64,000 nt of DNA from Raillietiella orientalis. Taxonomy: Eukaryota. Below, piece after piece: positions 3,144 to 40,149 of this stretch; the first letter of the stretch is position 1, and each line of letters opens with the position of its first letter. The stretch is from positions 62,001-126,000 of the forward strand of contig JAYWIR010000012.1 in the NCBI GenBank assembly GCA_036172245.1. The letters run 5' to 3'. A model generated the notes under the pieces. It had not been told where the DNA came from. It saw only the letters and a program-made list of their open reading frames with translations, and made no database searches. A program made the translations under genes and the position numbers.

Positions 3144-3347
3144 GACGGCGTGCTCCTCGCCCCGTCCGGCGAGAAGTCATCTGGTAGGAGAGCGGATTGG
3201 GGAGCGTAATCTCTCCCGTTCGCCGCCACATCGCACCCAGCTGAGTCCTGGGAGCCGAGGATCATCGCCTCGGGCTACGTGCAGGGGCCGGAACCGCCTC
3301 CGGCAACAGGCTCGTGCTTATACACTTTAGCCCGGTGCGCTTGCGGG

Positions 3348-5090: not shown

Positions 5091-5169
5091 CCTAGTGGAC
5101 GCACTCGGGCACACCACGCACAAAGAAGACGGAAAGGAATCGCGCTCGAGGAGCAACACAGAACACGTC

Positions 5170-7552: not shown

Positions 7553-8815
7553 ACCGACCCCCCTCGATCGTCTCGATCTCCTGGACGTCCGCCGCGGAGA
7601 TCACTTGGATCTCCTGCAGCAGGGCCAGGTCGAGCTCACGCAGGGTGTCGGCTGTATCTCGCCTGTTGCAGTCGCCGCGCAGCCCGTTGTCATTCCAACA
7701 GGCCACGCGAATCTGTAGGCGACAGGCGAGCCCAGGGGTTATTCCTGGGAACGTGGCAGTGCGGCTCGCGTCACCTTATCGGGCGGGACGGATGGAGAAG
7801 AAGGTACATCGCGCACCGGTTCTTTCTCCTCCATGGAGGCCGATTCCGATACACGCCTCATCGGGAGGGATAGGCAGGTATCTCCCACCTGCAATTCCTC
7901 CTCCATGAGGTCCGATTCGTCGGCTGCGCCGGTCGGTGGAAGGGGGAGGTTGTCACCTACGTACTTCCCTTCCTCCATCGGGGTTGACAGCTGATCGGTA
8001 GCGGGGAGTGGGATCTTCCCTTCCTCCGTTCCCACGCTGTCGGCTCCCCCCCCGGCTGCCTGTGCGTCCCGCCCGATAAGGAAGGTCGTGTGGACCAACT
8101 TGTTCTCAAGTGGACCGAATCGATCGACCTTGTCTTCACGAATGTGTACGCGCCGTGCGTCTCCGCGCTGGTCAACGAAAACGTGATCACTGCTGTGGTA
8201 GTCTCCCTCCTTTCGGTCGGAAGTCGAACGTCCTTTTTCTCGGCCTTTGCGGGTTGCTCCGTAACGGTGGCGAGCTTGTCGGCGGCTTTCCTTAAGTCCG
8301 CGTCACTGCGGTTTCCTCTTTCGCCGCAGCTTTCGACCGCTGTTTGCACAGCGACGGGGCTGTCAGCGTTGTTGCACACGGCAACGGCCTGTTCGCACGG
8401 CACATCGGCGTCTGTAAAACTCACCAGTGCGATCGTGCATTTATTCGGACTCTGCCTCTTCGCGGGTTTCGCGGTGTTTGCAGGGAGTTTGTCGTTGCAT
8501 TTTGCTTTTTCTTTCTTGTGGATGACCTTCTGCCTGTCAGGCTTTTCTCCTTCCACCTCGGTTCCCGGCGTTTCCGCAGACGAGGTGGTCGACGTGGCCT
8601 GTTTAACTGGCTCCGCATCAACCGTCTTTTCGGACGTCAGCCTGGGCTTACCGACGAGACGAGGAAGCCTCCTAGAAGTGATTTCCATACACCACTTCGG
8701 TGTTTTACAGGCTGGTCTTCCACACTGCAGCCAAGGGACATTCAAGACCAGCAGGGGGTATCCGCGGAGCCGCTGCAGCTCAAAGTTCGCCCAACTCTGG
8801 TACCAAGAGTGCCCA
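7553..8815 (-). mobile_element. Mosaic of Tx1-like APE N-terminus and ORF1 tail fragments, with a + strand APE sliver at ~8075-8160
   Basis: ACWNDNGLRGDCNRRDTADTLRELDLALLQE on the minus strand; GRVDQLVLKWTESIDLVFTNVYAP on the plus strand. Confidence 0.75.
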
Positions 8816-9730: not shown

Positions 9731-9920
9731 GGCCCGCGTTGGTGACCGTGTGGCAACGGTCTCGGCTCGCGACATCGAGTGTCGCAGGTTCAAATCCTGC
9801 CAGGGAAAAAATCGGCGGCAAGAAATGGAGGGGGGACGGGTTCCGCGCCATCATCCTAGGCCAATAGCAACGACCTTTTCATGAGGTCGATACTTGCCTT
9901 CGAAAGACAAAAACAAAAAA
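9731..9920 (+). mobile_element. tRNA-derived SINE
   Basis: tRNA-like head: D-arm ACCG-TGTGGCAA-CGGT and T-arm GCAGG-TTCAAAT-CCTGC (B box). The body ends in hairpin CGACCT..AGGTCG and an A-rich tail. Confidence 0.7.
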
Positions 9921-11059
9921 AGCTGGCTGACGCAGCACCGTACCGTTGCTGCGTTTGCATCTTCGCTCTTTGAAGCTTTGCTCACGAGCACTATGATAGC
10001 CAAGGATGTTTGCAGAGGCGTGATCATTGCTGGTTGCAAACTCTTTGAAGCCCTAGCCAAGTGTCTCCTTCCAGGTTCCGGAAACCCGCTCAGCTACCTA
10101 CTGACCGGGAATCCTCAGTCAGCTAAAGGAAAGATACGTTTTTTTTGGATGGAACAGCCCAGCTTCTTCACCCTGTTGGAATGTTTTCAAGCGGGTGAGC
10201 CGGGGCTTTTATCTTTTAAAAAACATTTTAACAATTGGTAATTGCAGTCGATTGTTTTTGAATTGTATTGTGCTAAGAACAAATAAGAACAATGTGCCGG
10301 AACACATTGTTTTTATTTGTTATGCACTTGTTCATCGACTTGAGTGCCGGTAAGGCCTACTCCACTGCACGGGCTCTCCACTGTAAGGCCTGCACGCCCC
10401 GCTGGAATGAGGAATGGAATCATCACGGTTTCATGGACAAACGAAAAGCACCGTTAATATGTTATTCATTATTTCAACGGAATGCGCGCGAAAAAAGGAA
10501 ACTGCGCATTTCAAAATACCGCACGGTCTCGTGTCGCATGCGACTCCATGGCAACCACGGGGAAGCGCTCTATGAAGGCGGGCTGTCGCCACTGGGAGAA
10601 GAGGGAGGGCGACAGCTAAGACCGCCAGAGGGGAAGCGTCGAAACTGCCGCGTAGGATGGCTGCTGTGACAACAGGGAGTCTCTGCCCGGCCGCTGATCC
10701 TCACAGCGCCCGCGACTGCCCCGTGCCAGCCCCTCATGCCTTCAGTCGAAGAACCTTCGGAGGCTGGTCGCGGTCGAATGATCTATACCGATCTGAGCTG
10801 GACGCGCTCTCCCTGCGTGCATGATTGGTGATTTGGAAAGCGGGTTGTTTACCCCATCAGACCTCCCGGTTGGGGGTCCGCAGAGGACCAGAGCGAAATG
10901 CTGGCGACCACGAGGTGCAACTGACTGTGGCTTCGAGACTGGCCTCCCGAAACGCACCCTCGGCACCAGGAGGTCACTCAGGTCACACCTTCCAAGGAGA
11001 TGGGCAGCAGGACTGCGCCGTCTCCGATTCGCGCGCGCTTCCTGCGGATCGTCCTGCGC

Positions 11060-11760
11060 CATTCGCGTGGTCATATATTCCCGGACGCTACTGCCCCTCT
11101 CGGATGTCCAATGGAATCGGTGCTCCAAGAAGCACGTGGACTTCTTTGGCATTCGCTCTGAACCAGAAAGCAAGGCAAACACTCTTTTGACGACTGCGTG
11201 ATCGTGTTGCCTTGCGGGGACGTCCACTGAGGAAAATGGCAGCCGACAGCTTAGTGACCTTATAGCTTTGTGACCACGAGCTATCATTGTAGGGTTCACT
11301 GTATTAACGATGACGCTGGGGATACCTTTTCTTTTTAGTTTCTTATGTTCGAGGCCTAAAACACGAATACCAAAGCACGACATAAAAATAGAAGAGTGGA
11401 AAGAACAAGAAGCATTAGTGGTAATAGATCCGTGGATTGTTTATTAGAATCGGACACAGACGGAGATCGGCCAATAGATCTCACACGATGACGTGCAAAT
11501 CTTACTGATAACGACGATAATTTGAGTGGGGGACCGTCAAGAGTAATGAAAATTTGAAATAACAAGAAATATCTTGGCAACCAGTATCCCATCCGAAAAA
11601 GAGCCTTCATTTTTCTCGAAAAGGAAACTGTCCCGTAGATCCAGAATCACCCCACTCCGCTATGGCCTATTTCCGAAAACTATCTGATGACGAAATCAGA
11701 AGCAATGCGGTTGACTGCACTCATACTTATGCACTGCAATGTTGGTGATCCATCGAAATC
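11060..11760 (+). mobile_element. piggyBac-like element 5' part (transposase N-terminal relic)
   Basis: Inverted homolog of ~53440-54130; encodes SAMAYFRKLSDDEIRSNAVDCTHTYALQ, resembling the piggyBac N-terminal F..FF.DE....IV..TN.YA.Q block. Confidence 0.65.
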
Positions 11761-12478: not shown

Positions 12479-12717
12479 GGTCTCCAAGATCACCTGACTG
12501 TACTGAGAGCCGTCTTTACACTTGTATGTGCGTATTCGTTATCTTCAAATAATTTGTAGACTCTTCTTTAGGGTCATAGGCATTAAAATGCTAGGAAATG
12601 TCTGCATGCTGTGGATGGAATTACCGTGCTCACACCATTGAGCATACATTTCGCCCAACATTTTTCTTTCTGTCCGTAACAAGACTTCAAAGAATCTTCA
12701 ATATCTTCCTCTTTTAG

Positions 12718-13699
12718 AAGGACGGTCATACGGTGTAGCGCGTTGGTATGCGAAGACTTTGCTGTCCATCTGCCCCGTGCAGATGCATGTCACCCTTGTC
12801 AATGCACCAGCTGTACTTTTGCATCACGCAGCTTCTGTCGTTTCAGTGGGCCAATTGCATCTCGTCAGGATACAACATACTGGCTGTCAGATCGGAGGAA
12901 ACCATCCTGTCGCACCTCCTGCTATGGCTGCTCCACGCACGTGGACGCTGGTCTTGATGCAGATTCCAACTGGGGACTACGCAGGTAAGAGAACAGTTAG
13001 ATTTCTCATAAGAGTCCATTCCACACCTGGCAACCCACCTATATTTGGGTGAGTTCGCCTTGTGGATGAGTGCACGGGTTAGTTGCAGCAATTCACCACA
13101 CGTTTATACTTGTCCTTTGCGAACTCGTATACCATTCGACACTCGTCGAAATCGTGTGTTTAATTTGGTTTCTAGCTCCCAGTGGATGCCTGCAGTTCTT
13201 CACGGGACTCACTGGAACTTTGACATCTTTTGCGTGGACGGGCGCTGCTGGTTCTGTTCTTGTGAATAATCTGGATTACCAAATATGCATTCGACAGGAA
13301 ATGGGACGCAGAGTGCTGTGCTTGATCCCTACCCTTCTGCTTGCGAACACGGGATTTTCAATAGACTCTGCTGTAATGACTTCCTTGTCGAACGGCGCTG
13401 CAGCGATGTGCATGGCTGACTTTTTCCAAATCACTTGCGGAGCCACTATGGCGAACGCAATGCTTTCAACCGCTCCCTGCACCCAGAATCGCTTTTGTGG
13501 CGCCGTTCTCAGTCCAGTGAGCGGAGCGATGCCACCTTCCATGCCAGTTTGCAGTGAGTTCCAATGTCCTTCCACGGCTTCCTTCCTCATATGCTTTCCA
13601 GCGCGTGTCCTGCCGTTCATGCTGCGAATTCGTACGAACAACGTTATTACCACCGCGGCCACGAACCGTGGATTCAACTTGAACTTCTCGCAGTTATGA
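12718..13699 (+). pseudogene. Truncated duplicate of the CUB-domain gene (no exon 1; in-frame internal deletion)
   Basis: The ORF reads GCQIGGNH-P-VAPPAMAAPRTW, fusing sequence from 25385 and ~26584 of copy B; 13070..13699 translates identically to 26747..27376. Confidence 0.85.
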
Positions 13700-15977
13700 A
13701 CTGAAATCTGCACACTTCCAGCTCTCTCGAAAAATTTTTAGTTACCCATTTTTCCCCAGGACTGCAGTGTGTTTAAAGTTGAGGAGAACATCTCCTTTGG
13801 TCTGCTCTACTCTCGTCGGTTACCCGACTGCGTACTCTTTTCTTCCTTCGAAACCCTGAAAATCGCATTCGAGGTTTCTTCAGGAACCTCATTCACCTGG
13901 AAGGTACGCTTGCCAAGTCTTCTTTATGAGCGAGCATGACCACTTCCCCATGCGTCCTCTCTCTCCGACATACGTTCCTCCTCCTACCGAAGATTTCCCA
14001 GTGTTGGACGAGGTTCTGGGGCGCAGCAACCGTGCAACACTTTTGCGGTTTCCCCCCTAACAGAAAGGGTGGATGAAGAACAAATCCGAGGTTTACCTGC
14101 AGAGTTCGTGTTGAATTCCTTGACGTTCTCTCCAAAATATATTCCCTTCCACTCCGATTTGACGAAATTGCAAAGAGTTTTTCCCTTCTAATTGAGCATT
14201 CATGTGTTCAAATTTTGTTTTGCTGCATCCTCACCATCCCAGCAACGGCTCAATCAATTTTAAAAGCTGACGGGGTATAAGCCGACCGGTACCGGTTGGT
14301 TATTCCGAGATAACTGCTGAAATTAGTGACGCCAACGGGTTCGACGGGGAAGCGGGAGAGAAATCTTTACGTAGCAGAGGAAATACCTTTCTTCAGTCAC
14401 TTCCATCAGGCACCTAGGTACCACCTCGGGCGCCTCCACGCATAAGTTAACGCGACCGCACCGTCACCGGCACAACGGTTCGTGGAAGGTGTCCGACAAA
14501 AACGATGCCGACGGTCCGTCGTGTCTGATCGTTGGTTCTTCTATGCTACCAAACCTCCCATCACCATTGACCCTTTTTGTATGTATGTCAGCTGTAGTTG
14601 AATGCGCAGTGTCGTTTGCACGAAACGCATGTTGCCAGTCATCGTCTAAGACCGTGTGGAAGCACAAGGAGCAGCTTCTTTGAATCCCATACGGGGAAGG
14701 GTCAACGCAAACACGAATGTTTCGTCGTTGAGGTTTTGCATTCGGGTAAAAGCACCGAATAGGCTGGTCGACCCATTCGGAGGTGGCACCGAAACAAAAC
14801 ATGTGTACCTGATTGATTGTCCGGGGTTCCTCAGGGAATCAAATTCCACAAATCAAGAAATTGGGTACACCACCAAATACAGAAATAAACCACTGCGGCC
14901 GATGGGCACGAAACCCACTAACGCATGCTATGGCGGCCAACAGCCAAAGTACCCATAAACAAAGCGCATCAGCCCTCGTTCCCTTACCATTACCGAAGTC
15001 CTTAATACCCCAAATACAGACTTGCGTCTCCGTCGGTTGAAGGTGAATGCTGCTCGTTGAGAGAACTCCGTATTGAAGGGAACAAGAAGCGGTTCCTTTC
15101 CAACTTCAATCCGGAGAAGAAATAGAATGTTTCTCCCTATGGAGTTTCCATTACGACAAGATAAGGAAATGGATTCCTTTCAAAAATCTTTCCAAACAAC
15201 TGACCAAAGCGGACACTCATTAGTGGTGCCCGTTCTCTAGTCAGGAAGTGGCTCTTCCACGGAATCCCCTATCTTTAACATTTACCCACACCCAGCAAAA
15301 GGTGTCCAACTGCATAATGGTGCTCCGTGAGCCATCAGGCGGATGCCGCTTTTCCAGGTATTTGGCGAACTAAAAAAAAGAAAACTGGAGACAAAAAAAG
15401 AAGTCGTAAAAACAGAACCGAAGACACAAAAATCAACCAAAGCATCATCCTTCTTCTATGGACTTTTTTTGGGGTTTCCACGGGATCAACAGCCAGCAAC
15501 GCAACTATGAAATGAAGGGTCCTCCACTTTAGATTAGTCTTTCTATAAAAGGGCAGCACACGCCGATGGGTGCCTTCAGTGCAGACTTCAACAAAAGGCG
15601 ATTTTCTCGGACGACATTTTTCATGTACGATACGCAGGATCCACTCAAATCACGGCACTGGGGTTTCCGGGACAACCGCGGAGACCTGTTGGACTGACCG
15701 CGGAGACCTCCAGGAACTTTGGCGCAGACTGGCCTCAGAGCGCCTGAATCCTAAGGATACGTCCATTGGTTCGCCGAGACAACTCCATGCCAAAAAAGGA
15801 TTCACTACAATCACCGTGACCTCGACGGCATGTTTGTATCATGCGCAGTCTGCCATTCTCCGGAGATTGGGGGGCAGCGAAGGGATGGCATCTGCATGGT
15901 AGCCGCCTTCATGAGGGCCTGCCAGATGGCATCACCAGGAAGAAGGAAACAGGAAGGACATCACCGGCATCTCACGC

Positions 15978-16048
15978 CCGCGTCGGAGGCTTTGTGGTTA
16001 AGGCTTCCGCGCGTGGCACCATGCGTCACGGGTTCGAATACTTCGGCA
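15978..16048 (+). promoter_or_regulatory. tRNA-derived head (Pol III A/B-box-like) at the LINE 5' end
   Basis: CCGCGTCGGAGGCTTTGTGGTTAAGGC...CGCGTGGCACC...CGGGTTCGAATAC; aligns with the heads at 9731, 33351, 36857(-) and 39047. Confidence 0.65.
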
Positions 16049-16572
16049 GATAACTGATGCCACTGCATCGTTTGGGTTCCGAGTTTCTCCTGCAACGGCG
16101 CTGGTTGGCCGAGACATTCGGGCGTGGCCCCGGCGGTGGATAAAGCCGGCGCCTCCCGATTAATTTCGGAACAATGGGAGTCGACCTTCGGGTCCTCCCA
16201 GGAATAAAGGAGTGGGGAGTTCCCCCTCCAGTCGTGCAACGGAGAGAGGACCCCCCCACCGGGGGAACCCTTCGGTTTCAAGATGAAGCAGGAGCCCTCA
16301 CGGGCATTTACTTTAGTTGTTCAAAGGAACGGACCCCCCTGTTGGGGGGTCTCTCTGAGTCGTCGCCTCTTCACAGAGTGTGTACAAAGGAAAGAAGCTA
16401 AGCGAGAGCGATTCCCTGCGGGAAGCTGCAGCGCCCCTTCTGAGTTTCGGAAGCAACCCTGTGGGGGTTGTCTTCAGAGGAGTGAATACAGGAGCGGTTC
16501 CCTTGCGGGTTCCCTCCGGAGAAGAAATTCCTAGAAGCGGATCCTTTCCGGGTTCCCTTCGAAGAAGTTGAA

Positions 16573-17142
16573 ATGGAGAGGACCACCACCCCGCAAGGGG
16601 GGGTGTGTCCCTCCGGAGAGAATGAGGAAGGAGAGTTCCCTTTGGGGTTCCCCTTCGGAGACAACCAGGATGGAAAGGTAGGTGAAGAGCAAGAAGGCGA
16701 GAAGATGGAGGTAGCGCAGGAAGGCGCGGAAGAAGAAATAGCCGAAGCCACTCCGGTGTCGCAGGAGGCCCTGCAATCTACGGAGGAGCTGACATCACTG
16801 GCTAATGAAGTCATAGAGGTGCAGAGCGTTCTCCAGCAAGAGAAAATCTTGCAGAAGATCTGCAATGCACAGGAGAAGGTCAACCAGGTTGTGGAGGCCA
16901 CCGAGCGCGAGAAGCTAGAGGAACAGCTTCTCGACGTAAAGGCGAACTTCTGCGCCAAGGTCGAGATAGGGGCGCTATCTCGAAAATTGATCGCGCGGGC
17001 CGAACACTCGACGGAGGAGGCGGAAGTAACCGACCTCACCGGAACAGAGAGTGACGCCGGCAGCGAGAAGCCCGCTGCTTCTTCGTCGTCTGGAAGAGCA
17101 CGCTCTCTCAGACAGAAGAAGCTCAGGAAGGCCAAGAAATAG
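16573..17142 (+). CDS. Short acidic, coiled-coil-like ORF1 with a basic C-terminal tail
   Basis: 189-aa ATG ORF that is E/Q-rich with a heptad-like pattern, ends RARSLRQKKLRKAKK and stops 13 nt before the ORF2 ATG; no CCHC knuckle. Confidence 0.65.
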   Translation: MERTTTPQGGVCPSGENEEGEFPLGFPFGDNQDGKVGEEQEGEKMEVAQEGAEEEIAEATPVSQEALQSTEELTSLANEVIEVQSVLQQEKILQKICNAQEKVNQVVEATEREKLEEQLLDVKANFCAKVEIGALSRKLIARAEHSTEEAEVTDLTGTESDAGSEKPAASSSSGRARSLRQKKLRKAKK

Positions 17143-17155
17143 GTCTTCCCCTTTT

Positions 17156-20100
17156 ATGGCCTCTTCCCTATCGACCGCCAGGAGGCTGAACATCGCCTCT
17201 TGGAATGTAAACGGTGTGGTCGACCAGGGAAAAAGAAAAAGGATTGTGCGGACCATCGCACACCAAGACATAGTGTGCCTGCAGGAGACCCACAAGATGG
17301 GTCTCGAGATTAGTCAGCAAATGGAACGGCGATTCAACAGGCAGATGTTTGTCAGCAAGGGAAAATGGAACACGCAGGGTGTGGCGGTCCTAATAAAGAA
17401 CCACTTGGCCCTCACTATTCTGGAAGTGTTCTGTCCCCAACCCGGACGAATCATCAGCGTGCGACTGGCCTGGTCCACTACTGTTCACCTCATCCTGGTG
17501 AACGTGTACGGGCCTCACAGGCTGAAACATCGCTGTGCGGAGGCGCTGCATGCAGCACTCCCTGAAAAGGTCGCCCCCAAGGACGTCTTGATTGTTGCTG
17601 GCGATCTCAACATATTGGATGAGATCACCCATTCCCAAGACGCCAGAGGAAGGACGGCGTATCGGCGGCTATCCGACGACTTCGGACTGGTGTGGCGAAC
17701 AGCAAGTCACAAGCCGATCGATCACGTCCTCCACAGCACCGAACTAGGAAATCGCATTCAGGGTTTTCGAGACACATTGACCACTCTGTCCGATCACCCG
17801 TTGGTGCGGTTTTCCCTAAGAACGGAGAATCCTCGGCGGAGGCAAGGCACCAGGGCGGCGCTCATCAGCATGCCCGCCTGGTTTGAGACACATCCTGGAC
17901 ATCAGGAGGTCCTGGAGACGATTCTGAAGACCACAAAAATCAGAAGAGTCGCCGACTGGGACAGCTTGAAACACAGGATACACCTGTTTGCAAATATGCA
18001 ATTCGGGGATAGGCGCTTGAGGCAGGAGGCGTACCGAGAGCTGAACATCCAAGATCGCTCACTCTCAAAGTACTTCGATCGGTACGAGAGTCGGTACGTC
18101 TTCAACAACATAAAAGGGGAAGTCGGCGTGCTGGAGAAGAGAAATCTGGCAACAGATATCTTCTGCATCCAGTACGACAGTCAAAAGCGACAGTCGTCTG
18201 CGGACATCGTGGATGCCTTTCAAAGGCATTACACGAAACACTTTAGGCGACAACATCTCTGTCGCTTTAGTCAACAAGCCTTTCTGAGCTATCTCGAAAA
18301 GAGGACCGACGACCTCCAGCGGAACAGATTGGAGGAGGAATTCTCCGAAGACGAGGTGAAGACTTCTTTTGGACAACTGCGCAAGGATGTGGCGGCGGGC
18401 CCTGACAGTGTACCCATCACGCACAATCAGCGGTACCTGCATGCCTAGCTGCGCTTGTTACACCAGTTGACCCTCTGCATCCGTGAAGAAGGCAGACTAC
18501 CTGATTCCTTCTACGAGAGTAGGATGCGATTGTTGACGAAAGGAGGCGACCCAACCCAGATCGCTCAATGGAGGCCAATCTCAATCCTGAACTCCGATGC
18601 CAAGTGGTTGTCGAAGATCTGGTCCAACCGCTTAGGCAGGGTCATGTCGAAGCTCATCTCTCCGGTTCAAACGTGTGCAGTCCCTGGACGTCATATGTCG
18701 GACAATGTCAAGTGTGCCCAGGCCACCGTCGGACTCAGCCGATACGTCGGCGAGAACCTGGCGCTGGTGTTCACTGACATGGAGAAGGCTTTCGACTCCA
18801 TCGACCATGGGATGCTGCTGAAGGTTCTGGAGAAGTTAGGCCTTCCGGAACACTTCAGCAACTTCGTGAGGGTGGTACTCCAGAACCAATACTGCCGAAT
18901 CAAAATCAACGGCCTGGAGACGGCAGCAATCCGGATGGAACGGGGAGTCCGGCAGGGCGATTCGCTAAGTCCGATGCTGTTCGTCATCTACATGGAGGCG
19001 TTGTCGTCTTTTATAGAGAAGAGCGGACGACTGCAAGGCATAACAATCGATGGCCAGCGTCTTACCCATCTGGCATACGCTGATGATCTACTCTTCTTTA
19101 TCAAGGGAGAGAGAAATCAACGAGCGTTTCTGGATGTGGTAGACCTGATGGATCAAGGCCTGCGTCTAAAGATCAACGCCCAGAAAAGCCAGCTCTTGCC
19201 CGTTGGAATCCTCGATCTCTCCGCTCTAGCGGGGAGAGGATTCCAAACGGTGGACAAGGCCAAGTACCTGGGTGTCTACATTGGCGACGTTTCCGCGTCG
19301 AAGCTATTGTGGACCGAGATCCTAGGGAAAACGGCCAAGAAAGCAGCCAAGTACACCCGAACGGACCTTGGGATGAAGCGGAAGGCCAACATATGGAACG
19401 GAGTACTCCTTCCAGAAGTGCTCTTCGGGGCGGCCTTCGCGAGGATGAACAAGGACACCACGAGGGAGTTCGACATGCTGCAGAGAAAAACACTGTGGGG
19501 CAACTATCGCCCAAGAGTTCGACTAAAACCCCTGTGTCGTCCCAGGGAAGAAGGCGGTTCCGGGATGAAGTCGTTTGCACACTCCATAGAAATCATGGAT
19601 ACGCGACACATCCTGGACATTGCCACTCACTGGGATGACTGGCCGTATGCGGCGCACAGGGCCTACGCGTTGTTGTTGAACAACTCGAAAGGCCTGATGA
19701 CTGCGCTGCTAGGCCGAGCAGGCGAATGGATAAAAATCGACCCAACCTGGACGAGGAAGCAACGGCTGGTGCGAAAGCACAAAATCAAGATCGTGCCGAG
19801 AAGTAGGGAACTCTGTCAGGACGAGTCCATCCTGGTGATCCCTTGGATGCTTCCTCTCCCGCCGGACACGAGAAGCTGGATCCACCAGCGGTCCAGAGTT
19901 ACCCTTCAACGAATCCAGGAGTGGAAACGAGGAGGGTACCTACATCACACTCGTATACTTAGGTATATAGAGATGATGTTAGGAAGGTTTACCCACATGA
20001 GTCGCGAGGTATGGATCAACCACAACGACTTCGCGTGGTCCAGGGTATTCAAAACAAATCTCCGAAGATTAATTCGGGAAGAACACCGTGACATCAGTGC

Positions 20101-20674
20101 CCTCCAGGAAGCCGCCGATCGCTACAGAAGCGACCGGATCAACCTGCTAGCGATCGGCACGATGCTCTGGAGGAGTGACCTTCCGCCGGGCACCCAGGAT
20201 GACCTCCTGATGTTTTATCATGGAGGAATCCAGAGTGGGTCCCGATTGCAGTACTATACCGGAAGACGGGAAGATCGAGACTGCACGGCATGTGGAGACA
20301 ACGACACGAGACTTCACGTCTTGACGTGTCCCACATTGCTGCATGACTGGCTGATCCTGAAAAGGATCATCGGACTCACGAACAGATCCGTAATGGAGAT
20401 CCTCGCCGGGATGTTTCAGGGGGATGGTAATGTTCCCTGTTACAATCCCATGGTGAGGACGACCATCGCCCTCTTCATCACCGCCATACTTGTGCGGTGG
20501 TGGAAAATGAGGAAAGCCAGAAGAGCCGCACCACCGATGGAGATCCTACAAGGGCTCCTGAAGAGGGAAATCGGCATTATAAACTGTGGGAAAATCCAAG
20601 CCTGGACGTACCGATTCATCCTGAAGAGGATAGAAGACGACGCCCGGGACCGAACAGCAGGAAACCCACCATGA
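17156..20674 (+). CDS. LINE ORF2 APE endonuclease-reverse transcriptase with a single in-frame TAG at 18446-18448
   Basis: SWNVNG, CLQETH, AGDLN, IDH, SDH (APE); GPD, WRPISILNSDAK, DMEKAFD, GVRQGDSLSP, YADD, KYLG (RT); CTACGDNDTRLHVLTC. ORFs 17051..18448 and 18455..20674 are in the same frame. Confidence 0.93.
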
Positions 20675-22096
20675 GTGCAGAACTTGTGAACCCATGGACT
20701 TCAAAGTGGTAAAGACAGTGCAAATGGTATAAATGAGACTGTAGTGTGAATGTTTTTGTAGAAAAATTTTTGAAAAATAAATTTACCCCACCCCTTGTGG
20801 GACTTGGGGAAACCGGCATCTCACGCTGGTTCCAGAAAGCAGGAACGGCCATCACCTGTAATAACTGTCTTCATCCCTCCCTTTCTTTATACATTTATTT
20901 ATTCTATATTCCTCTCTCATTCGATTCGGAATTTCTTCGGTTTCTCTAGAAGCAAAGAGACAAACCAAAGACCCTCTTTCCTACCCCCTACGTTTGTTTA
21001 TTTATTTGTTGTCCCCTTTCTCTCGGTTGGTGACTTTTCCTAATCTCGACCCGCCTTTTTTGCTTAATGGTTTTGTCTCGGAAACCTCCCTGTCACTCAA
21101 CTCCTTGGTTTATTTATTTCTATGTTATATTGATGTATTCAAAATGAACATCGCTACGTCACCGGGTGAAAATTTGGAATTCTTGAGGGATTGGGCTCAC
21201 TTCCTATGATGTCCTCTTGGATGTGTACCGAAACAGTACGCATGTCGCAGTCTCTTACAGCTCGGCTGGCATTACAGATTTTGTCAGTTCGTGTTGACGA
21301 GCTCATCACAGCTGCAAGATGCTTGGAACTCAACCAATAGAAATTCCTTGTCAAGTGCAACACACGCAGCGTTCAAACAGATAGACACACCGGTGTGTCC
21401 GATCTTCTCCGAACTTGTGTTTCTTTGTTTATTTCCGCTTTTGTTTGTGTTGTTTTTACACAGCAAACGAGGAAACCATTAATATCATCTTGAAGACGAT
21501 GATGGAGGGAGAACTGTCCTTCTCTATCTCCCTTTCTTCCCCGAGAAGGCACTCCAGCTCTGCATCCTTCCTAGAGGATGCAGAAGTCCAAAATGACGGC
21601 GAAGGATGGCAGCCATGTTGTTTCAGAAAGTCTCACTCTACCGGCAGCCCCGCGTTAAATCAAAAGCGAATAGAAACTGCGGAATTAAGCGTATGGGGAC
21701 GGTCCCCTCCCATTTCTGCCTGTTGTTCGCCCCATGTACCCCACAAAATCATGAGAGAAATTTGCAGCACGACGAAACATCTGAAGATCGACGCGTCACC
21801 CACACGCCCGCTGGCGCTTGTTTTCGCCGCTTTGGGGAGTCATTGTGTTGTGGACGCCGGCCTCGCGCTCAGTATCAGGGGTCACCCCACAGGATGGACA
21901 CGCTTGCGCTACTCGTCAAGAACCTGGAGCAAGTCTTGAATTGCGTACAGGAAGGCAGGGCTGCGAGGGCGTTCCTGAATTCTGGGTTAGAATGGAAACC
22001 GAAACACTCTTGAACCAGCAGAAATCACATGAGATGACGGCTCCGAAAACCGAGTGCGGAGCAAAAGTTCTTTGGAAGGGGAAGGAGGAATGGAAA

Positions 22097-23542
22097 GCCC
22101 TCTGGGGAAACCGGATGCACCGCGTCCAGGTTAAAGACTTGTGCGCTCCACGGTGGGACGGCGTACTTGGTCTCCTGACGCTGGAGCGCATGGAGCGACA
22201 GCTCGAAGTAAGAAAGCTTGCCCTTTTGGCAAAATACTGGACAGCACTCTGGTGTGCACCGATACGGCTCCACGCCCACAGGGCAACCGGATTCTACGTG
22301 TTCACAACAATCCTAGTAGCCAACGACCGTATTCTGAACCATTGTGTTTTTAGCTAAGGGATCTAATTGTCCTGATGAGGGACAATCCGTGGATCTCCTG
22401 CATCCCAGCGAACTGGTCTATCTGCCTCCAGGATTCAGTTTCCACGTGGGCTAAAATCAGCGGCTTCAGCGGTGTGGACTTCTCCTGCCTGCACCGAGGC
22501 AGGTACGCTGGCCAGCCCCTGCAGGAGATCGTATCCAACTTACAAAACCTTCTGTGGGCTTCCTTTACCCCCCTTGCTCCCGTGCTGCCCTTCCTCAGAT
22601 AAGCCAGGCACAGCCAAGAGGAGGTATCGTAGGAAGTGTCCTACCTCATCGGAGGCAGGAAAAAACCAATAAAGGCGTGGACGTCCCGGGAGCTCGCGGA
22701 CGCTAGAACCCCGAATGTTACGCCGAAGGGACTTGTGCGCTGGGGCGAGCTGCTCGTTGTGCCTCCGGAGTAGGTGAAGTGGCCCCCAGCGTCTTGGGAG
22801 AACGGCACCCTTCCCCTGCAGTGGCAGGAGGAGGCGTTGCTTCTGCTCCATTGGGAACTTCTAAGCAGAACACGCCTGTCTCACTGTACCACAGGAAGCG
22901 TGGATGCCCATTTTGCAGAGTGCGGGGAAAAAGAGAGACTTTCCCTCACTTAATCATCGAGTGTGTTGCCCTCCTTCAGATGTGGGATCGACTCTCGTCC
23001 ATCCTGAACATTCCGGTGGGCGACCCCAAGAACATCTTTCAACACCTTCTTACGCGGGACGGCATGCCAGCCTTTGGGTGTGTAGCACTGCTCTGCTGCA
23101 TACGCGGGATCTTTGAGAAGTTAACCACAACTAGGAGAGGACGAAGAAGTCGGAATGTTATTCACTGGGCAACCATCTCGTTGGGAAATGCTTCCCGTGG
23201 GCGCCGACTTCGAAACCATATGCTGGCACTTGTTCGCTTCAAAAACCGGATGCAGAGGTATCCTCACGGCGCACCGTGATCCCTTTCCTTCCCTACCCTC
23301 CCGAAAAAACATTTTCCCCCCAGGCGTTTTTTCTTTTTTTGGTTTTTTTTGGTTTTTCCCGCCCTGGCGCCAGTGAAGTGGCCCTTACCAGCCTATGGGT
23401 CGGCATGGACAAGTGCCCCAATACAGTCGGAACGTATGTTCTTGTTCAAAATCAAAGGCGATAACGAAAAGAAAAGCCTTTATTATGGAATTTTTGAAGT
23501 AAAAATTTTAATAACAAAAGCCGCGGCTCACCCGGGTGAAAA
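22097..23542 (+). mobile_element. 5'-truncated Tx1-like insertion present only in duplication copy A
   Basis: KALWG..RVQVKDLCAPRWDG.LGLLTLER; CPFCRVRGKRETFPHLIIEC; ends CACCCGGGTGAAAA; absent from copy B at 30863-30961. Confidence 0.88.
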
Positions 23543-24653: not shown

Positions 24654-27376
24654 ATGTCCTCCAACAACTTCTTGAAGATACTCCTTCTCTGTGCACCTCT
24701 CGCAACAGCTGCCTTTGGCTCAGGAAATGAAACGAAAACCAGCAGATCGCGTAAGTCGTAAACGAAGGAATGAACAAATGCGTTGCTGTTGTTCTTTGTG
24801 GCTGTATTGCATTCATGTGAACGGACATCCAACATGAGGATGAGTGACCGGCGTCCTCACGCATGGGCAACGAAAATTTGGTTCGCCCATGCTGTTGTGT
24901 TCAGAGGTTGTTCCATAAATAGGGAATGATTAAGTTGACTGTCGGGAACCCTGCGTAGGGTCTCCAAGATCAGCTGACTGTGCTGAGAGCCGTCTTTCCA
25001 CTTGTATGTGCGTATTCGTTATCTTCAAATAATTTGTAGACTCTTCTTTAGGGTCATAGGCATTAAAATGCTAGGAAATGTCTGCATGCTGTGGATGGAA
25101 TTACCGTGCTCACACCATTAAGCATACATTTCGCCCAACATTTTTCTTTCTGTCCGTAACAAGACTTCAAAGAATCTTCAATATCTTCCTCTTTTAGAAG
25201 GACAGTCATACGGTGTTGCGCGTTGGTTTGCGAAGACTTTGCTGTCCATCTGCCCCGTGCAGATGGATGTCACCCTTGTCAATGCACCAGCTGTATGTTT
25301 ACATCACGCAGCTTCTGTCGTTTCAGTGGGCCAATGGCTTCTCGTCAGGATACAACATACTGGCTGTCAGATCGGAGGAAACCATGGCACCTGTCTGTCC
25401 TCAAGGGAGTGTACACGGGAGAATGGCACGTCTGTAGGAGCGTGCGCTTTGGGAATAGGAGTCTGCTGCATGGGTAAAATTGGAATAATTGAAATCTTGT
25501 CGAAGAATGATGAGGGGTTCTCGCGTTTCAGTGCGATTGGGGTGCGCTGGAAGAACAAACTCGAACAACACCAGTTTCATGCCATCGGGCAATATACTCA
25601 TGGCTGGTGGTCAGTGCCAACTAACGGTAACTCGTCAAATACCCTCTGTTAGTCAGCTTCGGTAAGTTTTCTTCTAGCTTCTTCCGTGATAGAGAATATG
25701 TAGAAACAAAAACGAGTGACGCAATCCGTCTTTTTGTGAAGAGCGCATCGTACAGGGCGGTTCTGTATAAGTTAGTAGCCATGGGAAGTAGGTTGCGTGT
25801 GGAACCGCAATTTCGCAAGAGACATCCCAGTCGTGCACTCGATTCCGTTGTCAAAGAATTTCACTCCTCCTTTTCGAGAGTCACCAAACTGCGTTTCTCT
25901 ATTTTCCGCCCGCAAACCGAAATGAGGAAAGCGTTCCCTTCTGGAATGAAAGTTCACGCGAAAGTCTGAAGAGAAGGAACCTGGTTGCGTGGAATGCAGA
26001 GCTTGTTTTTCATGGAGCCTTTTTTTTTTTTCAGAATCAATATGGTGCCCCTGAACATTATGCCTCCAACTATGGCAACTGCATTATGTGATATGGATAT
26101 GTTCACAATCACGGTGGCTGGATCGCCAAGCGCGATTTTGTCACCGATTTGCGGAGTCAATAATAACAACCACGGTGAGCATCCCTCGGCTATATCGGTT
26201 GTGGATATCCCAATACACTTACGGTTTTGACACTTTCGAGAGGGAGTGTCGAATACGACCGAGATCGCTGGGATTATTTGCTTCCATCTTTGGATCCTTT
26301 TTTCCATCAAGCTGGATTACCAGTTGGAAGAGATCCAAGCAGTTCGTTCTCCTCGACATTTGCATGAAGCGTGCTCCTCCAGATGCAGCATCTGCTTTCT
26401 CACCTGGAAGTGACTTCGGCATGCAAGCTCATGTTTCGCCGAAGTCGCGTCTCTTTCTGACCATTGCGCTTCTTGAGTTTCGGGATCTCTACTTGCGAGT
26501 GAGCGGTCTTTGAAGAGATGTTTCCTTTTTAGTATACGTTGAGTTCCCTCAAACGGGTGGCGACATCATGCTAAGTTTCACACTTGTCGCACCTCCTGCT
26601 ATGGCTGCTCCACGCACGTGGACGCTGGTCTTGATGCAGATTCCAACTGGGGACTACGCAGGTAAGAGAACAGTTAGATTTCTCATAAGAGTCCATTCCA
26701 CACCTGGCAACCCACCTATATTTGGGTGAGTTCGCCTTGTGGATGAGTGCACGGGTTAGTTGCAGCAATTCACCACACGTTTATACTTGTCCTTTGCGAA
26801 CTCGTATACCATTCGACACTCGTCGAAATCGTGTGTTTAATTTGGTTTCTAGCTCCCAGTGGATGCCTGCAGTTCTTCACGGGACTCACTGGAACTTTGA
26901 CATCTTTTGCGTGGACGGGCGCTGCTGGTTCTGTTCTTGTGAATAATCTGGATTACCAAATATGCATTCGACAGGAAATGGGACGCAGAGTGCTGTGCTT
27001 GATCCCTACCCTTCTGCTTGCGAACACGGGATTTTCAATAGACTCTGCTGTAATGACTTCCTTGTCGAACGGCGCTGCAGCGATGTGCATGGCTGACTTT
27101 TTCCAAATCACTTGCGGAGCCACTATGGCGAACGCAATGCTTTCAACCGCTCCCTGCACCCAGAATCGCTTTTGTGGCGCCGTTCTCAGTCCAGTGAGCG
27201 GAGCGATGCCACCTTCCATGCCAGTTTGCAGTGAGTTCCAATGTCCTTCCACGGCTTCCTTCCTCATATGCTTTCCAGCGCGTGTCCTGCCGTTCATGCT
27301 GCGAATTCGTACGAACAACGTTATTACCACCGCGGCCACGAACCGTGGATTCAACTTGAACTTCTCGCAGTTATGA
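24654..27376 (+). CDS. Secreted arthropod-type CUB-domain protein (multi-exon)
   Basis: Signal-peptide exon 24654-24750; exons ~25198-25473 (possibly split by a small intron), 25532-25661, 26035-26174, 26533-26661, 26853-27230 and 27279-27376, with GT-AG sites and compatible phases. Motifs GTC...EC...G.CA.G.GVCC, ICG, APSGCLQFFTG, YQICIRQE, RFCG, GFNLNFSQ. Confidence 0.88.
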
Positions 27377-33350: not shown

Positions 33351-34290
33351 GGCCCGCTCTGGTGACCCCGCGGTGGCGGTCTCCTTGAGCGGCCCCGAGC
33401 GTACCCGCATCGAATTCCGCACGCGGAAGGATGGCCGCCGTGAACCGGGAAGATGCGTTCGATTCCCTATTACATGATGACGCCGGTTGGCCCTTCTTGG
33501 CGTCAAATCGGCCACTGTTGGAATCCGGGTGACCCCGTGGACTGGCCGGGATCGGAAGTCCACAGTGCGGAATCCTTCCAGCAATCAAAGAGATGGATTC
33601 CCTCCGGTGGTAAAAAAAAAAATGGGGCTGTTGCATGAAGCTGGCGGATTCCCCCTTCGGGAGATCGCCTCTCCAGAGTGTCTAGAAGCTCGATGTCCCT
33701 TCAAGGAGCACCGTTCGGAGAAATCGAGAAGCGTCTTTTTGGGTTCTCTTCGGAGGAAGAGGAACAAGGAACGCTTCCCTGGGAGGAGGTGCCACCGGGG
33801 GAAAAATAGAAGGAGAGGAATGGATTCTCGATACCCTGAGCATCACGCACGTATTTCCCCTTTATAATACCGCCTGCATCGACCGGGAAAGTTCTCTTTG
33901 TCTCCATAGAGAAACGACCCAACTGGAAGCCAGTCGAATTCTTTTTCTTGCTTTCTTTTTAGTTTTTCTCCTGGTCGCCTTCAGAGAAGAGACGAGGAAT
34001 CACCCACTCCCGAGTTCCCTCCGGAGACAACCAGGGTGGAGGGTTCCATCTCAAGCGTAAAAGGAATGGACTCTGCTTCCTGCGGTGCCTTCCTAAATTC
34101 ATACGGTGGTCATAACGGGATACCCCCTAACTTGGAGAGTCACGTACCCTCGGGAGGTGTGGACAGTCTTTAAAGAGCTTTGCAAGCCCGTCGTAAAGAG
34201 GAGAACGGTTCTTCAGCACTCTTTGGGTAGCAAAAAAGGAAAAAACAAAAAGCTGGAATGCAGGCAGCGACAACAAGAGAACCGAAAAGG
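33351..34290 (+). repeat. tRNA-headed dispersed repeat (long SINE-like), homologous to the LINE 5' region
   Basis: Head GGCCCGCTCTGGTGACC..GCATCGAATTCCGCACGCGG; body TCCAGCAATCAAAGAGATGG shared with 36630(-); CGGAGACAACCAGG shared with 16656. Confidence 0.65.
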
Positions 34291-36289: not shown

Positions 36290-36857
36290 TAGATAGCCGC
36301 ACGGGAGGAAATCCGGAAGGGAAACCTTCTACTCTGCTTCTCTCCAAAGGGAACCTCCTTCCTTAATCTCTCTGAATTGGTCCTCAAAGGGGAATCAGTT
36401 CTCGTTTCTTCTCCGGAGGCATCCCCGCAAAGGAATCCCTCCTTGTTTTCTACTCTGAAGAGAACCCCGATAGAAGGCTCCCAAATTTATCTGAAGAGTC
36501 GATCACCGAAAGGAGCAGCGCGCTTCTTCACACGCTGGATAGACAACCCCTCGAGTAGGAGCCTTCACCAGCTTTATGATCGGCTTTACTCTCACAAGAA
36601 GACAGGAACAACCTCGAAGGGAACCATCTCTTTGATTGCTGGATGGACTCCGGAGTTCTACTTCCGATCCCGTCCAGTCGACAGGGACACCTGGCTTCCA
36701 CCAGTGCCGCATTTGAAGCTCACCAAGGCCAACCAGCACCATCTTGCAGGGGACTCCAAACCCCCGACGCACCACTCCTCCGTTTTCGACATCCACCTTT
36801 CCCTGGCGTGATTCGAACCCGCAACCCTTGGTGCTGCAAACGGTCACCAACGCTGGC
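36290..36857 (-). repeat. tRNA-headed dispersed repeat copy
   Basis: Minus strand GCCAGCGTTGGTGACCG...GCGGGTTCGAATCACGCCAGGG, followed by the shared body. Confidence 0.7.
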
Positions 36858-36890
36858 GGAATCTTTATTTTTAATTTTGCTACTGTTGGG

Positions 36891-39046: not shown

Positions 39047-39710
39047 CGTCCGCGTTGGCCTACCGTGTGACTGCGGTCTCCACGCGTGGCACCGAGCTTC
39101 GTGGGTTCGAAACCCGCACGCGTAATGGTCGACGTCGAGAAATGAGGGGTGCGTCGTGGTATTCGAGGTCCCCTCCACAAGGTGACGCTAGCTGACTCAC
39201 GGACATTAAGTACGACACTGCTGGAAGAAGCCAGGTGACCCCGTTAACTTGCTGGGGCTGGGAATTGACCTCTGTGGTCCATCTACAAATCAAGGGACCC
39301 TTTGAGGTTCTCCTCCGATTGTCAAAATGGAGCAATCCTTCCTTTCGGGGAAGACCTCCGTCTCGTACCATGGAGCGTCCGTAGTGCTACCTCTCCAGAG
39401 TGTTACAGAATCGCGCTGCTCCCTTCGAGGAGCATCCTTCTGAGAAATTGGGAACCGTCCTTTCAGCGTTCTCTTCAGAAAAGGAAACAAGAAGCGGTTC
39501 CTTTCCGGACTCCCTTCGGAGGGGAAACTAAGGAGGATCCCCTCCATAGAGAACATGGGAGAGGTTTCCTTCGGAGTTCCTCTCTTAAGCTTCAGAGGAA
39601 CGAACTCCCCTTCCTCCGGAGCCTTCCTGGATTCATAGGTAGGTCCCTACGGGTTTATCCCCTAACGTGAAGAGTTGCAGGGATCCTTGAGCGGTGCTTA
39701 AAGGTTTTTT
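39047..39710 (+). repeat. tRNA-headed dispersed repeat copy
   Basis: CGCGTTGGCCTACCGTGTG...CGCGTGGCACCGAG..GGGTTCGAAACCCGCACGCG; body AACAAGAAGCGGTTCCTTTCC shared with 15080 and 16487. Confidence 0.7.
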
Positions 39711-40149
39711 TTTTCCATTTCCTAAGGAGGAGAGCGGTTCTTGAATACCTGGCGAACAAGGTACGAAAACAGAAGAACCCAGAAGGAATCCGCCAGAGCG
39801 AGGAGCTCTCTTCCCAACGAGCTCGAAACCGTTTCCATTAGAGCAGCAGGTAGCAGCCTCTCGGATGGATGCGGGCTGACTTGCGGCCCGTGGTCAAAGA
39901 TTCGCAGATAAAACGAAAGGTAGGGATAAAATCGTGCCTCAGAACCGGATGGTCCACCTCCTGTAATGCAGTGGCTTCGGGATGGTGCGCGGAGTGGCCG
40001 CGTGTGTGCCACGTGCAACAATCTTCCAGCGAACCGCGCCGATCCCGAGATGGCATCCGCAGTCGTCGTAGGACCCTGCGGATTTCCGCACCGAGGGAAT
40101 GACGGGCAATGAGGAAACCGAGGAGAACGGGCGAAATCTTTCGGGAGGA

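Follow-up and report, generated by a model that had tools for sequence, protein, structure and literature searches.

LINEs are coding elements that use Pol II internal promoters; SINEs are non-coding and carry small-RNA-derived Pol III heads, usually with a 3′ tail borrowed from a LINE. The locus studied here lies in a 64,000-nucleotide stretch of contig JAYWIR010000012.1 of Raillietiella orientalis (the window). An initial annotation had described a full-length LINE with a tRNA-like Pol III head, and had proposed either a LINE family that adopted the head or a one-off SINE-LINE chimera. Our analysis points to a coding LINE that probably carries a SINE-type, tRNA-derived head as a heritable 5′ end common to non-coding elements. 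Coordinates of all features are collected in Table 1.

Table 1. Features of the LINE, of its target site and of the other head-bearing elements in the window
Feature	Position	Strand	Basis or remark
5′ TSD ACCGGCATCTCACGC	15963..15977	+	sequence read
Probable tRNA-derived head of the LINE	15978..16044	+	profile of 4 other heads, motif positions, fold
Rest of 5′ UTR	16045..16572	+	hairpin-rich; colinear with three non-coding elements to about 16564
ORF1, 189 codons, Glu-rich	16573..17142	+	ORF list; no Pfam family
ORF2 with APE and RT, one in-frame TAG	17156..20674	+	ORF list, Pfam
3′ UTR, AT-rich, two T5 runs	20675..20811	+	sequence read
3′ TSD	20812..20826	+	sequence read, self-megablast
Empty target site, paralogous segment	29579..29593	+	sequence read, self-megablast
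el9731, non-coding, most tRNA-like head	9731..9826, 3′ limit uncertain	+	nhmmer, Rfam
el33352, non-coding, about 905 nt, of which about 190 nt are inserted	33351..34258	+	nhmmer profile, alignments
el36870, non-coding, head without D-like hairpin	36404..36859, 3′ limit uncertain, may reach below 36404	-	nhmmer profile, alignments
el39046, non-coding, about 740 nt	39047..39784	+	nhmmer profile, alignments

The insert is 4,834 bp long (15978-20811). As initially annotated, it is bracketed by a perfect 15-bp target-site duplication (TSD), both copies of which were read in the sequence. A lone, uninterrupted copy of the same 15 bp stands in the paralogous segment. Self-megablast aligned 15002-15977 with 28617-29593 (93.8%) and 20812-22093 with 29579-30859 (97.3%), and the matches left and right of the insert share exactly the 15 bp of the TSD, which bears out the empty site that had been claimed. 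A TSD of variable length produced by target-primed reverse transcription is expected of the L1 superfamily, and the perfect duplication together with the empty paralogous site agrees with it. The element entered by this route and left the 15-bp TSD.

The predicted coding content was also recovered, namely ORF1 and an almost intact APE-RT ORF2 with a single in-frame TAG (18446-18448); 13 nt separate the ORF1 stop from the ORF2 ATG. Pfam detected Exo_endo_phos (1.2e-15) and RVT_1 (2.8e-32) in the same frame of ORF2. The APE domain (about 17195-17797) is N-terminal and is followed by the RT (about 18563-19279), the order found in the L1 superfamily. The best solved match of ORF2 is human L1 ORF2p (E 2e-37, versus 1.2e-24 for R2). 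In protein searches, the best relatives of ORF2 were 26-36% identical, with top matches at 32-34%; nearly all are without source name, and none of the 8 relative clusters looked up is named. The RT part of ORF2 had no match in public collections of metagenome, viral and genome contigs. For ORF1, no relative was found among 1.84 billion representatives, and no Pfam family was detected, including the Transposase_22 family of L1-type ORF1 (coiled coil, RRM, CTD). The 3′ end carries no poly(A) tail, a feature looked for as an L1-superfamily trait; it closes with a G+C hairpin (20786-20809) plus AA, which is likely to be the recognition site for the element's own RT. At the sequence level, these data identify the insert as a non-LTR retrotransposon of the L1 superfamily that is both young and full-length.

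The motifs attributed to the head were all found in place: GTGGTTA at 15994-16000, the loop CGCGTGGCA at 16010-16018 and the B-box-like GGTTCGAATAC at 16031-16041. With the A-box-like motif at 15987-15997, the two boxes lie near the 5′ end at a tRNA-like spacing of 44 nt start to start, the same as in el9731 (9743 and 9787). Each LINE motif deviates from the box consensus at 1-2 positions. Taken on its own, the LINE head fails tRNA models. Its T arm is broken, with 2 of 5 pairs, the anticodon arm is lost too, and the fold is a 17-bp 5′-terminal hairpin with no cloverleaf. ARAGORN called no tRNA in the whole window and, at thresholds lowered to 80%, nothing in the LINE head; Rfam gave no tRNA match at E ≤ 10, neither for 5.2 kb of sequence nor for the 151-nt head region by itself.

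Hairpins abound in the rest of the 5′ UTR (fold z -3.45 for 15978-16500), and a 35-nt hairpin unit is repeated at 16490-16663. No ribozyme family of Rfam matched the LINE 5′ end at E ≤ 10, in a search whose covariance models can miss HDV-like folds such as the 5′ self-cleaving ribozymes of R2 and L1Tc, and no ribozyme or other RNA family reached its gathering score in the whole window. A minus-strand reading frame across the head (15961-20), used in a protein search for further copies, gave no match, and head patterns gave none in metagenome, genome and viral contigs of public collections.

Within the window, the head is not isolated. An nhmmer profile made from three 5′ regions detected five elements (E 5.9e-80 to 3.9e-12), the LINE and four non-coding ones. 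A head-only profile (75 columns) used in a leave-one-out manner recovered every omitted head, the LINE head with an E of 5.8e-8, and nothing else below E 0.4. Across the 64 kb, head identity between the LINE and the other elements is 49-69%; despite this divergence, GGTTCGAA is retained in three of the five heads and GGTTCAAA in a fourth. The likeness extends beyond the head, over about 500 nt of 5′ UTR common to el33352, el36870 and el39046 and colinear with the latter two, and ends near 16564, just 5′ of the first ORF1 ATG (16573). The four non-coding elements contain no ORF1 or ORF2 remnants, and their ends show no similarity to the LINE 3′ UTR or ORF1 start. No exact 10-mers were plausibly placed to form TSDs around them, so that their SINE-like nature and 3′ limits are provisional. 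The nhmmer profile found no head at the 5′ side of an unrelated LINE on the minus strand (85-5237). B-box-like sites at 53183, 56056, 61925 and 63007 were read and are not heads; the stretch 56052-56082 reached only E 0.55 in the profile.

These homologous heads, and not the LINE copy itself, provide the link to tRNA. The head of el9731 matched the Rfam tRNA model RF00005 over 9742-9801, aligning to model positions 7-64 with an E of 0.024; its 20.9 bits fall short of the 29-bit gathering score. In this alignment, the D, anticodon and T arms follow one another as in a tRNA, the T loop is canonical and all 5 bp of the T stem pair (GCAGG/CCTGC); the B box GGTTCAAATCC occupies 9787-9797. In el39046, the T arm is also intact (GTGGG/CCCGC), with the B box GGTTCGAAACC at 39104-39114. 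Thus, two of the five heads have intact T arms, and a compensatory A-U/G-C change distinguishes them. The tRNA relationship of the initial proposal appears only by way of the homologous heads, as the LINE copy gave no call with ARAGORN or Rfam.

The tRNA likeness might nevertheless be coincidental, the head then being a family-specific structured leader of non-tRNA origin (one long hairpin at the terminus and a second, small one) that would serve, for instance, RNA stability, protein binding or 5′ processing. Consistent with this, four of the five heads are without a tRNA match at E ≤ 10: besides the LINE, those of el39046, el36870 and el33352. Rfam otherwise returned weak unrelated matches, and none of any kind for el36870. 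Default ARAGORN called none of the five heads, and calls from relaxed runs, inconsistent in isotype and place, were discarded as evidence. The conserved fold is not a cloverleaf either, the 5′ end being paired to the 'anticodon' region. In this fold, 83.7% of 86 cells are paired, versus 32-49% with partners slid, a score inflated by the derivation of the fold from one of the sequences; in four pairs both partners have changed, a count attained in 5 of 500 shuffles, and the RNAalifold covariation term is unfavourable (+3.16). Against coincidence stand the ordered arms, canonical T loop and perfect T stem of el9731 and the tRNA-like geometry of the boxes, and we regard it as improbable. SINE heads of tRNA origin are often missed by tRNA finders. 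From the sequences compared, the head is probably a heritable 5′ module with tRNA ancestry.

Whether this module arose with a single insertion was considered next to known chimeras. U6/L1, tRNA/L1 and Alu/L1 chimeric insertions (bioRxiv 10.1101/2025.02.02.635956) likewise place small-RNA or SINE sequence 5′ of LINE sequence inside one TSD. As reported there, they are single events with 5′-truncated L1 parts, most of the tRNA parts being antisense and half-length. The LINE part described here is full-length and includes ORF1 and all of ORF2, its sense-oriented head is no recognisable tRNA, and el33352, el36870 and el39046 have the same head-UTR junction. Because the head and about 500 nt of UTR recur in other elements, and contigs of an unrelated DNA run cover the head (see below), a one-off tRNA/LINE chimera appears unlikely. 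The initial annotation is thus supported in part, in favour of a heritable shared module and against a one-off tRNA/LINE join. We consider it rather likely that the first ~67 nt of the LINE are a diverged tRNA-derived head with which a group of retroposons begins in this genome. The group comprises the coding LINE and several SINE-like elements that are non-coding; in three of these, the common sequence continues through the following ~500 nt of 5′ UTR.

Contigs of one unrelated DNA run (X1) were placed at 80% identity or more. In total, 247 contigs were placed, 10 at 99% or above, 47 at 95-99%, 76 at 90-95% and 114 below 90%. The flanks of the LINE are not covered (depth 0 to 0.48). Depth was 23.8 in the head bin (15908-16134), 24.7-36.7 in the next 5′ UTR bins and 54-134 in the ORF2 bins; the lower depth at the 5′ end fits 5′-truncated LINE copies better than an abundant SINE. 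Among the contigs seen in detail (8 of 266 contig pieces and 6 of 129 loose ends), at least four span 16067, one links 16045 to 16173, its head-side part being at least 40 nt long, and at least six break or diverge at 16674. Depth also rises 2.5-fold, from 24.7 at 16362-16588 to 62.8 at 16816-17042. Given this rise and the breaks, 5′ UTR and ORF1 may or may not be continuous in other copies.

A junction at this place may have another origin. A SINE-like element (head plus a body of about 600 nt) could have become joined to the body of a LINE at about 16.56-16.70 kb, by template switching in reverse transcription, 5′ transduction from an upstream SINE or DNA recombination, and inserted as one unit, the LINE family normally having another 5′ end. 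Such a rare or one-off recombinant at the UTR/ORF1 boundary has to be considered because all four other head-bearing elements are non-coding and a single full-length coding LINE copy was seen. The end of the shared homology just before the ORF1 ATG and the X1 depth step with its diverging contigs agree with it. Exchange of LINE 5′ ends (bioRxiv 10.1101/2022.11.04.512097) and Alu/L1 or tRNA/L1 chimeras (bioRxiv 10.1101/2025.02.02.635956) are also known. However, the presumed junction shows no SINE tail, A-run or second TSD, the hairpin repeat units run across it, and the LINE part is full-length, unlike in the chimeras described above. Moreover, X1, which lacks these flanks, holds sequences at least 80% like the LINE 5′ UTR, at lower depth than ORF2, whereas the non-coding copies of the window, about 62-65% alike, are too diverged to be placed at this threshold. 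Overall, we judge a recombinant unlikely and retain the shared 5′ module. Were it nonetheless a rare recombinant, the locus would show, caught in the act, how a LINE and a SINE-like element exchange 5′ modules.

Pol III initiates 9-14 nt upstream of box A on tRNA genes, and the LINE starts 9-14 nt upstream of its A-box-like motif. One could imagine the head as a functional type-2 promoter from which Pol III makes the whole 4.8-kb LINE RNA. The 44-nt spacing shared with the tRNA-matching el9731, the retention of GGTTCGAA or its variant in four heads, and the confinement of sense-strand T5 runs to the 3′ UTR (20753 and 20767, 40-60 nt from the 3′ end) would suit this reading. Yet about one T5 run is expected by chance, so that a T5-free body means little. 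Six T4 runs precede the 3′ UTR, the first at 17152, and the 8 runs of T4 or longer in the whole element compare with about 5.7 expected from composition, that is, no depletion. The T and anticodon arms are lost in the LINE copy, and Pol III transcripts are as a rule short and uncapped. With its 4,834 bp, two ORFs and internal T4 runs, the insert also differs from a SINE, a short non-coding element free of internal T-run terminators. The 'Pol III head' of the initial annotation is hence not upheld as a working promoter for the whole LINE, and transcription of its full RNA by Pol III seems very improbable from sequence.

The head plus UTR would act as an internal promoter module travelling with every full-length copy. 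On the short non-coding elements, its A- and B-box-like motifs, which keep tRNA-gene geometry, may direct transcription by Pol III. For the LINE mRNA, which must be translated and holds six T4 tracts, Pol II transcription from the same module is more likely; under Pol II, the B box would either be a relic or serve to bind TFIIIC or to position the start site. In a bolder reading, a tRNA-type internal A/B-box promoter (TFIIIC/Pol III or TFIIIC-assisted Pol II) would set the transcription start of an autonomous LINE lineage of the L1 superfamily, whose 5′ end is common to non-autonomous SINE-like partners. We hold this to be improbable. If true, the LINE/SINE partnership would operate via a common head and not a common tail, breaking the rule that small-RNA heads define SINEs. 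Should the head be general for the family, it would offer a natural system for studying how LINEs recruit new promoters and whether a protein-coding retrotransposon can make use of TFIIIC/Pol III elements.

A full-text literature search returned no paper on an autonomous LINE with a tRNA-derived head; the nearest systems were TRIMp3 elements, one-off L1 chimeras and the non-tRNA Pr77. Kojima 2018 (PMC5786205) describes tRNA-derived SINEs with bodies from LINE 5′ UTRs, and bipartite non-autonomous LINEs. As here, a tRNA-derived head with A and B boxes precedes LINE 5′ UTR sequence, and modules are common to coding and non-coding elements. In the systems presented there, however, the head is on the SINE only and the LINE begins with its own UTR, whereas here the head is at the very 5′ end of a coding LINE, and the SINE-like elements and the LINE have a common 5′ end with no common 3′ tail found. 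The 77-nt 5′ module Pr77/L1TcRz of trypanosomatid L1Tc, NARTc and ingi/RIME (PMC1874656, PMC3383444, PMC3185411) resembles the ~70 nt seen here in being short, 5′-terminal, present on an autonomous LINE and its non-autonomous relatives, and moving as an internal promoter. By these accounts, it is a Pol II promoter and an HDV-like ribozyme and is not tRNA-derived; here, no ribozyme family matched, and L1Tc is of the ingi clade while the present LINE belongs to the L1 superfamily.

In the '5′ switching' of plant RTE and mammalian L1 (bioRxiv 10.1101/2022.11.04.512097), LINE lineages also gain new 5′ promoter modules of unrelated sequence but keep their ORFs and 3′ end; the modules reported there are Pol II-type and not small-RNA-derived. 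[quoted passage not shown] They are short non-autonomous LTR elements, in contrast to the 4.8-kb coding non-LTR element of this locus.

Finally, L1-superfamily elements are expected to have a Cys-rich (CCHC) region at the ORF2 C-terminus. Direct reading gave a candidate there, a CX2CX8HX4C motif at 20282-20329; zf-RVT is absent from the Pfam matches at E ≤ 0.01. The zf-RVT domain is common among distant ORF2 homologues.

The insertion was delimited with the help of a segmental duplication in the window, in which 12479-22093 corresponds to 24959-30859; the two copies are 92-99% identical and show additional differences. The left flank of the LINE (15002-15977) matches 28617-29593 at 93.8%, and the right flank (20812-22093) matches 29579-30859 at 97.3%. 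In the second copy, the two matches share exactly 15 bp, 29579-29593, corresponding to the unoccupied target. Because the flank matches overlap by this target only, the insert spans 15978-20811, or 4,834 bp. The 15-mer ACCGGCATCTCACGC is found at 15963-15977 and is repeated at 20812-20826. Thus, the perfect target-site duplication (TSD) and the empty paralogous site proposed in the initial annotation were both located. The comparison indicates that the LINE inserted after the segmental duplication and that its mode of entry doubled 15 bp of target sequence. The second copy of the duplication also carries a 1.2-kb insert at 25386-26584, and 66 nt of the first copy (14936-15001) are represented by 4 nt in the second.

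The two ORFs of the LINE are separated by 13 bases. ORF1 matches no Pfam family and has no detected relative among 1.84 billion representative proteins; it may be an orphan, or else an ORF1 type that evolves very rapidly. In ORF2, Pfam recognizes Exo_endo_phos (APE, 1.2e-15) and RVT_1 (2.8e-32), and a CX2CX8HX4C motif is present at 20282-20329. Among proteins of solved structure, human LINE-1 ORF2p ranks first (E 2e-37), with R2 proteins behind (1.2e-24). The nearest database proteins show 26-36% identity (32-34% for the top matches), many of them having APE, RT and zf-RVT domains. Poly(A) is absent from the 3' end, and no second copy of the family is found in the window. Judged from its sequence, the insert belongs to the L1 superfamily and is young and almost intact; its ORF1 is atypical, and its 3' end is not of the poly(A) type.

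Coding and 3'-terminal features of the LINE, and neighbouring exons (window positions)
Feature	Position	Strand	Remarks
ORF1	ATG 16573 to TAG 17140-17142	+	189 codons, Glu-rich
ORF2	ATG 17156 to 20674	+	single in-frame TAG at 18446
3' UTR	20675-20811	+	AT-rich; terminal G+C hairpin 20786-20809, then AA
Anion-exchanger (HCO3_cotransp) exon	32124-32858	-	E 1.6e-13
Anion-exchanger (HCO3_cotransp) exon	38257-38802	-	E 5.6e-21

The first ~67 nt of the LINE (15978-16044, the head) had been described as tRNA-like. The motifs named in support of this description are present. Taken alone, the head is matched by the tRNA models of neither ARAGORN nor Rfam. ARAGORN detected 0 tRNAs in the whole 64-kb window and, with thresholds lowered to 80%, still made no call on the head; at 70%, it proposed an implausible tRNA gene located away from it. 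At E ≤ 10, Rfam reported no tRNA in 15800-21000 or in the 151 nt around the head, and no family reached its gathering score anywhere in the window. Folding of the head gives a 17-bp hairpin beginning at the first base of the element instead of a cloverleaf.

Short matches led to two further head sites, at 36.8 kb (minus strand) and 39.1 kb. Both regions share with the LINE the CCGC..GCGT start, a CGCGTGGCACC-like block and a GGGTTCGAA block, and are colinear with its 5' UTR over several hundred bases. A profile of the three 5' regions picked up 33352 (E 1.2e-27) and 9732 (E 3.9e-12) as further copies, so that five head-bearing elements, LINE included, are present in 64 kb. In a leave-one-out test using 75 head columns only, every omitted head was recovered, that of the LINE at 15976-16041 with E 5.8e-8, and no further window site scored below E 0.4. 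Pairwise identity between heads is 49-69%, showing that they are old, independent lineages rather than recent copies of one another. A weak sixth match to the 5'-module profile (E 0.0031, profile positions 54-263) lies inside the duplicated segment at 28351-28545, and may represent an old copy truncated at the 5' end; the paralogous site near 14674-14868 is absent from the profile matches.

The four other elements (el9731, el33352, el36870 and el39046) are non-coding. No ORF1 or ORF2 remnant was found downstream of their heads, and no hit arose within 33-44 kb when tblastn was run with the proteins of the LINE and of the second LINE family in the window. Homology between el39046 and el33352 extends over about 740 and 905 nt, respectively, and ends at the same point in both (39784 and 34258); el36870 shares about 450 nt and el9731 only about 100-125 nt. 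Their layout, with a head, a UTR-like body, short hairpin repeats and a purine-rich end, is that of the first ~700 nt of the LINE. No TSDs were found for these elements, nor any similarity to the LINE 3' UTR; from their sequences, they may be either non-autonomous, SINE-like elements or LINE deletion derivatives. Three of these four elements lie in, or adjoin, introns of the minus-strand anion-exchanger gene, between and beside its two exons listed above.

The initial annotation had left a choice between a LINE family that adopted the head and a one-off chimera. Recurrence of the head in four other elements, with a shared UTR in three of them, leads us to reject a one-off tRNA-LINE join. The five heads and the shared UTR partly support the other option: the head is a heritable, probably tRNA-derived 5' module common to the coding LINE and the non-coding elements.

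Evidence of tRNA ancestry comes mainly from el9731, whose head matches the Rfam tRNA model RF00005 with 20.9 bits (E 0.024), below the gathering score of 29. The alignment covers model positions 7-64, in which the D, anticodon and T arms are correctly ordered and the T stem and loop are perfect. Rfam gave no tRNA match for the heads of el39046, el36870 and el33352. T-stem pairing is full in el9731 and el39046, 4/5 in el36870 and 2/5 in both el33352 and the LINE. The box-A-like and box-B-like motifs are 44 nt apart, start to start, in both el9731 and the LINE, and box A lies 9-14 nt from the 5' end of the elements; both distances fit type-2 Pol III promoters. On these sequence grounds, descent of the heads from a tRNA is probable, if unproven. 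The structure kept across heads consists of a long 5'-terminal hairpin, with an outer 9-bp stem around a D-like stem, and a T-like hairpin. With five sequences only, one of which supplied the structure, 83.7% of 86 cells were paired as compared to 32-49% with slid partners. Both-sided changes occurred in 4 pairs, equalled by 5/500 shuffles; the RNAalifold covariation term was unfavourable (+3.16).

Copies outside the window were also sought. The RT part of ORF2 and head patterns found no match in public metagenome, genome and viral contigs. In one unrelated public DNA run (X1), 247 contigs aligned to the LINE region at ≥80% likeness: 10 at ≥99%, 47 at 95-99%, 76 at 90-95% and 114 below 90%. 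Flank depth was 0 at 15000-15680 and 20902-21800, and 0.48 at 15681-15907. The head bin (15908-16134) had a depth of 23.8, the remaining 5' UTR bins 36.7 and 24.7, 16589-17042 43.6 and 62.8, and the ORF2 bins 54-134. Since flanking sequence makes up 70 of the 227 bases of the head bin, these bin means, rather than a direct reading, imply that X1 covers the head about as deeply as the following UTR. The non-coding elements of the window, only about 62-65% alike, are too diverged to align at this threshold. Depth is lower at the 5' end than over ORF2, as is typical of 5'-truncated LINEs and unlike what an abundant SINE would give. Among the matches listed, four contigs (summed depth 24) span 16067 and one, with a head-side part of at least 40 nt, connects 16045 and 16173. 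Overall, we lean towards the head being the 5' end that this LINE lineage normally carries.

A rare recombination at the UTR/ORF1 boundary could also have produced the insert. Depth climbs 2.5-fold over 16362-17042, and six contigs among the matches listed diverge at 16674. Three listed contigs skip 111-125 nt of hairpin repeats, showing that repeat number differs between copies. Given the depth rise, breaks and skips, and a listing of 8 of 266 pieces and 6 of 129 loose ends, the X1 copies are not proof of UTR-ORF1 continuity; we nevertheless consider such a recombinant unlikely. The repeats, 3-4 copies of a 35-43-nt unit at 16490-16663, lie upstream of and within the ORF1 start, each unit folding as a small hairpin whose loop is of the CUUCGG or CCGG type.

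SINEs combining a tRNA head with pieces of LINE 5' and 3' UTRs are well described; there, the partner LINE lacks the head (PMC5786205), whereas here the head sits on the LINE. L1Tc and NARTc share a 77-nt 5' promoter-ribozyme module that, in contrast, is not tRNA-derived (PMC1874656, PMC3383444, PMC3185411), and chimeras of the U6/L1, tRNA/L1 and Alu/L1 kinds arise as single events and contain truncated L1 sequence (bioRxiv 10.1101/2025.02.02.635956). Other sources document LINE 5' UTR switching (bioRxiv 10.1101/2022.11.04.512097) and small-RNA-derived promoters within otherwise Pol II-type elements, namely short LTR elements (PMC10886601). No autonomous LINE with a tRNA-derived head was found by full-text literature searches, a scope excluding subscription journals and Repbase reports, so that absence is unproven.

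A stronger form of the initial proposal would make the head a functional Pol III promoter from which the entire LINE is transcribed. On the sense strand, T4 occurs six times in the interval 17152-20213, and the 3' UTR adds two T5 runs. The eight runs of T4 or longer compare with 5.7 expected from composition (sd 2.4), so these runs are not depleted; lack of T5 in the body is not significant because about one is expected. In the accepted view, as given in PMC10886601, non-LTR elements use Pol II, and Pol III processivity bounds SINE length. The T runs and this view, together with the need for the LINE RNA to be translated, leave production of the full-length RNA by Pol III a bold minority reading that we regard as very improbable. 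For the full-length LINE, a Pol II start from the same head module would be likelier, the B box possibly being a relic or a factor-binding site.

A second, commoner L1-like LINE family occupies 85-5237 (minus strand), with fragments at 6332-6934, 7539-8155, 22094-22740, 45025-47114, 49366-49862, 50324-50989, 51686-52187 and 59296-59466. It shows 24-34% protein identity to ORF2 of the present LINE and 50-68% between its own copies, and has a 629-codon upstream ORF for which Pfam gives no match. The 5' side of this second family yielded no tRNA-derived head. An RT-coding stretch of this family is flanked and partly included by a 1,464-bp inverted duplication (43810-45273 and 47863-49326), 99.86% identical, which looks like a recent rearrangement. 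Finally, a 0.7-kb repeat of unassigned family occurs in opposite orientations at 11050-11760 and 53444-54143, with 87% identity.
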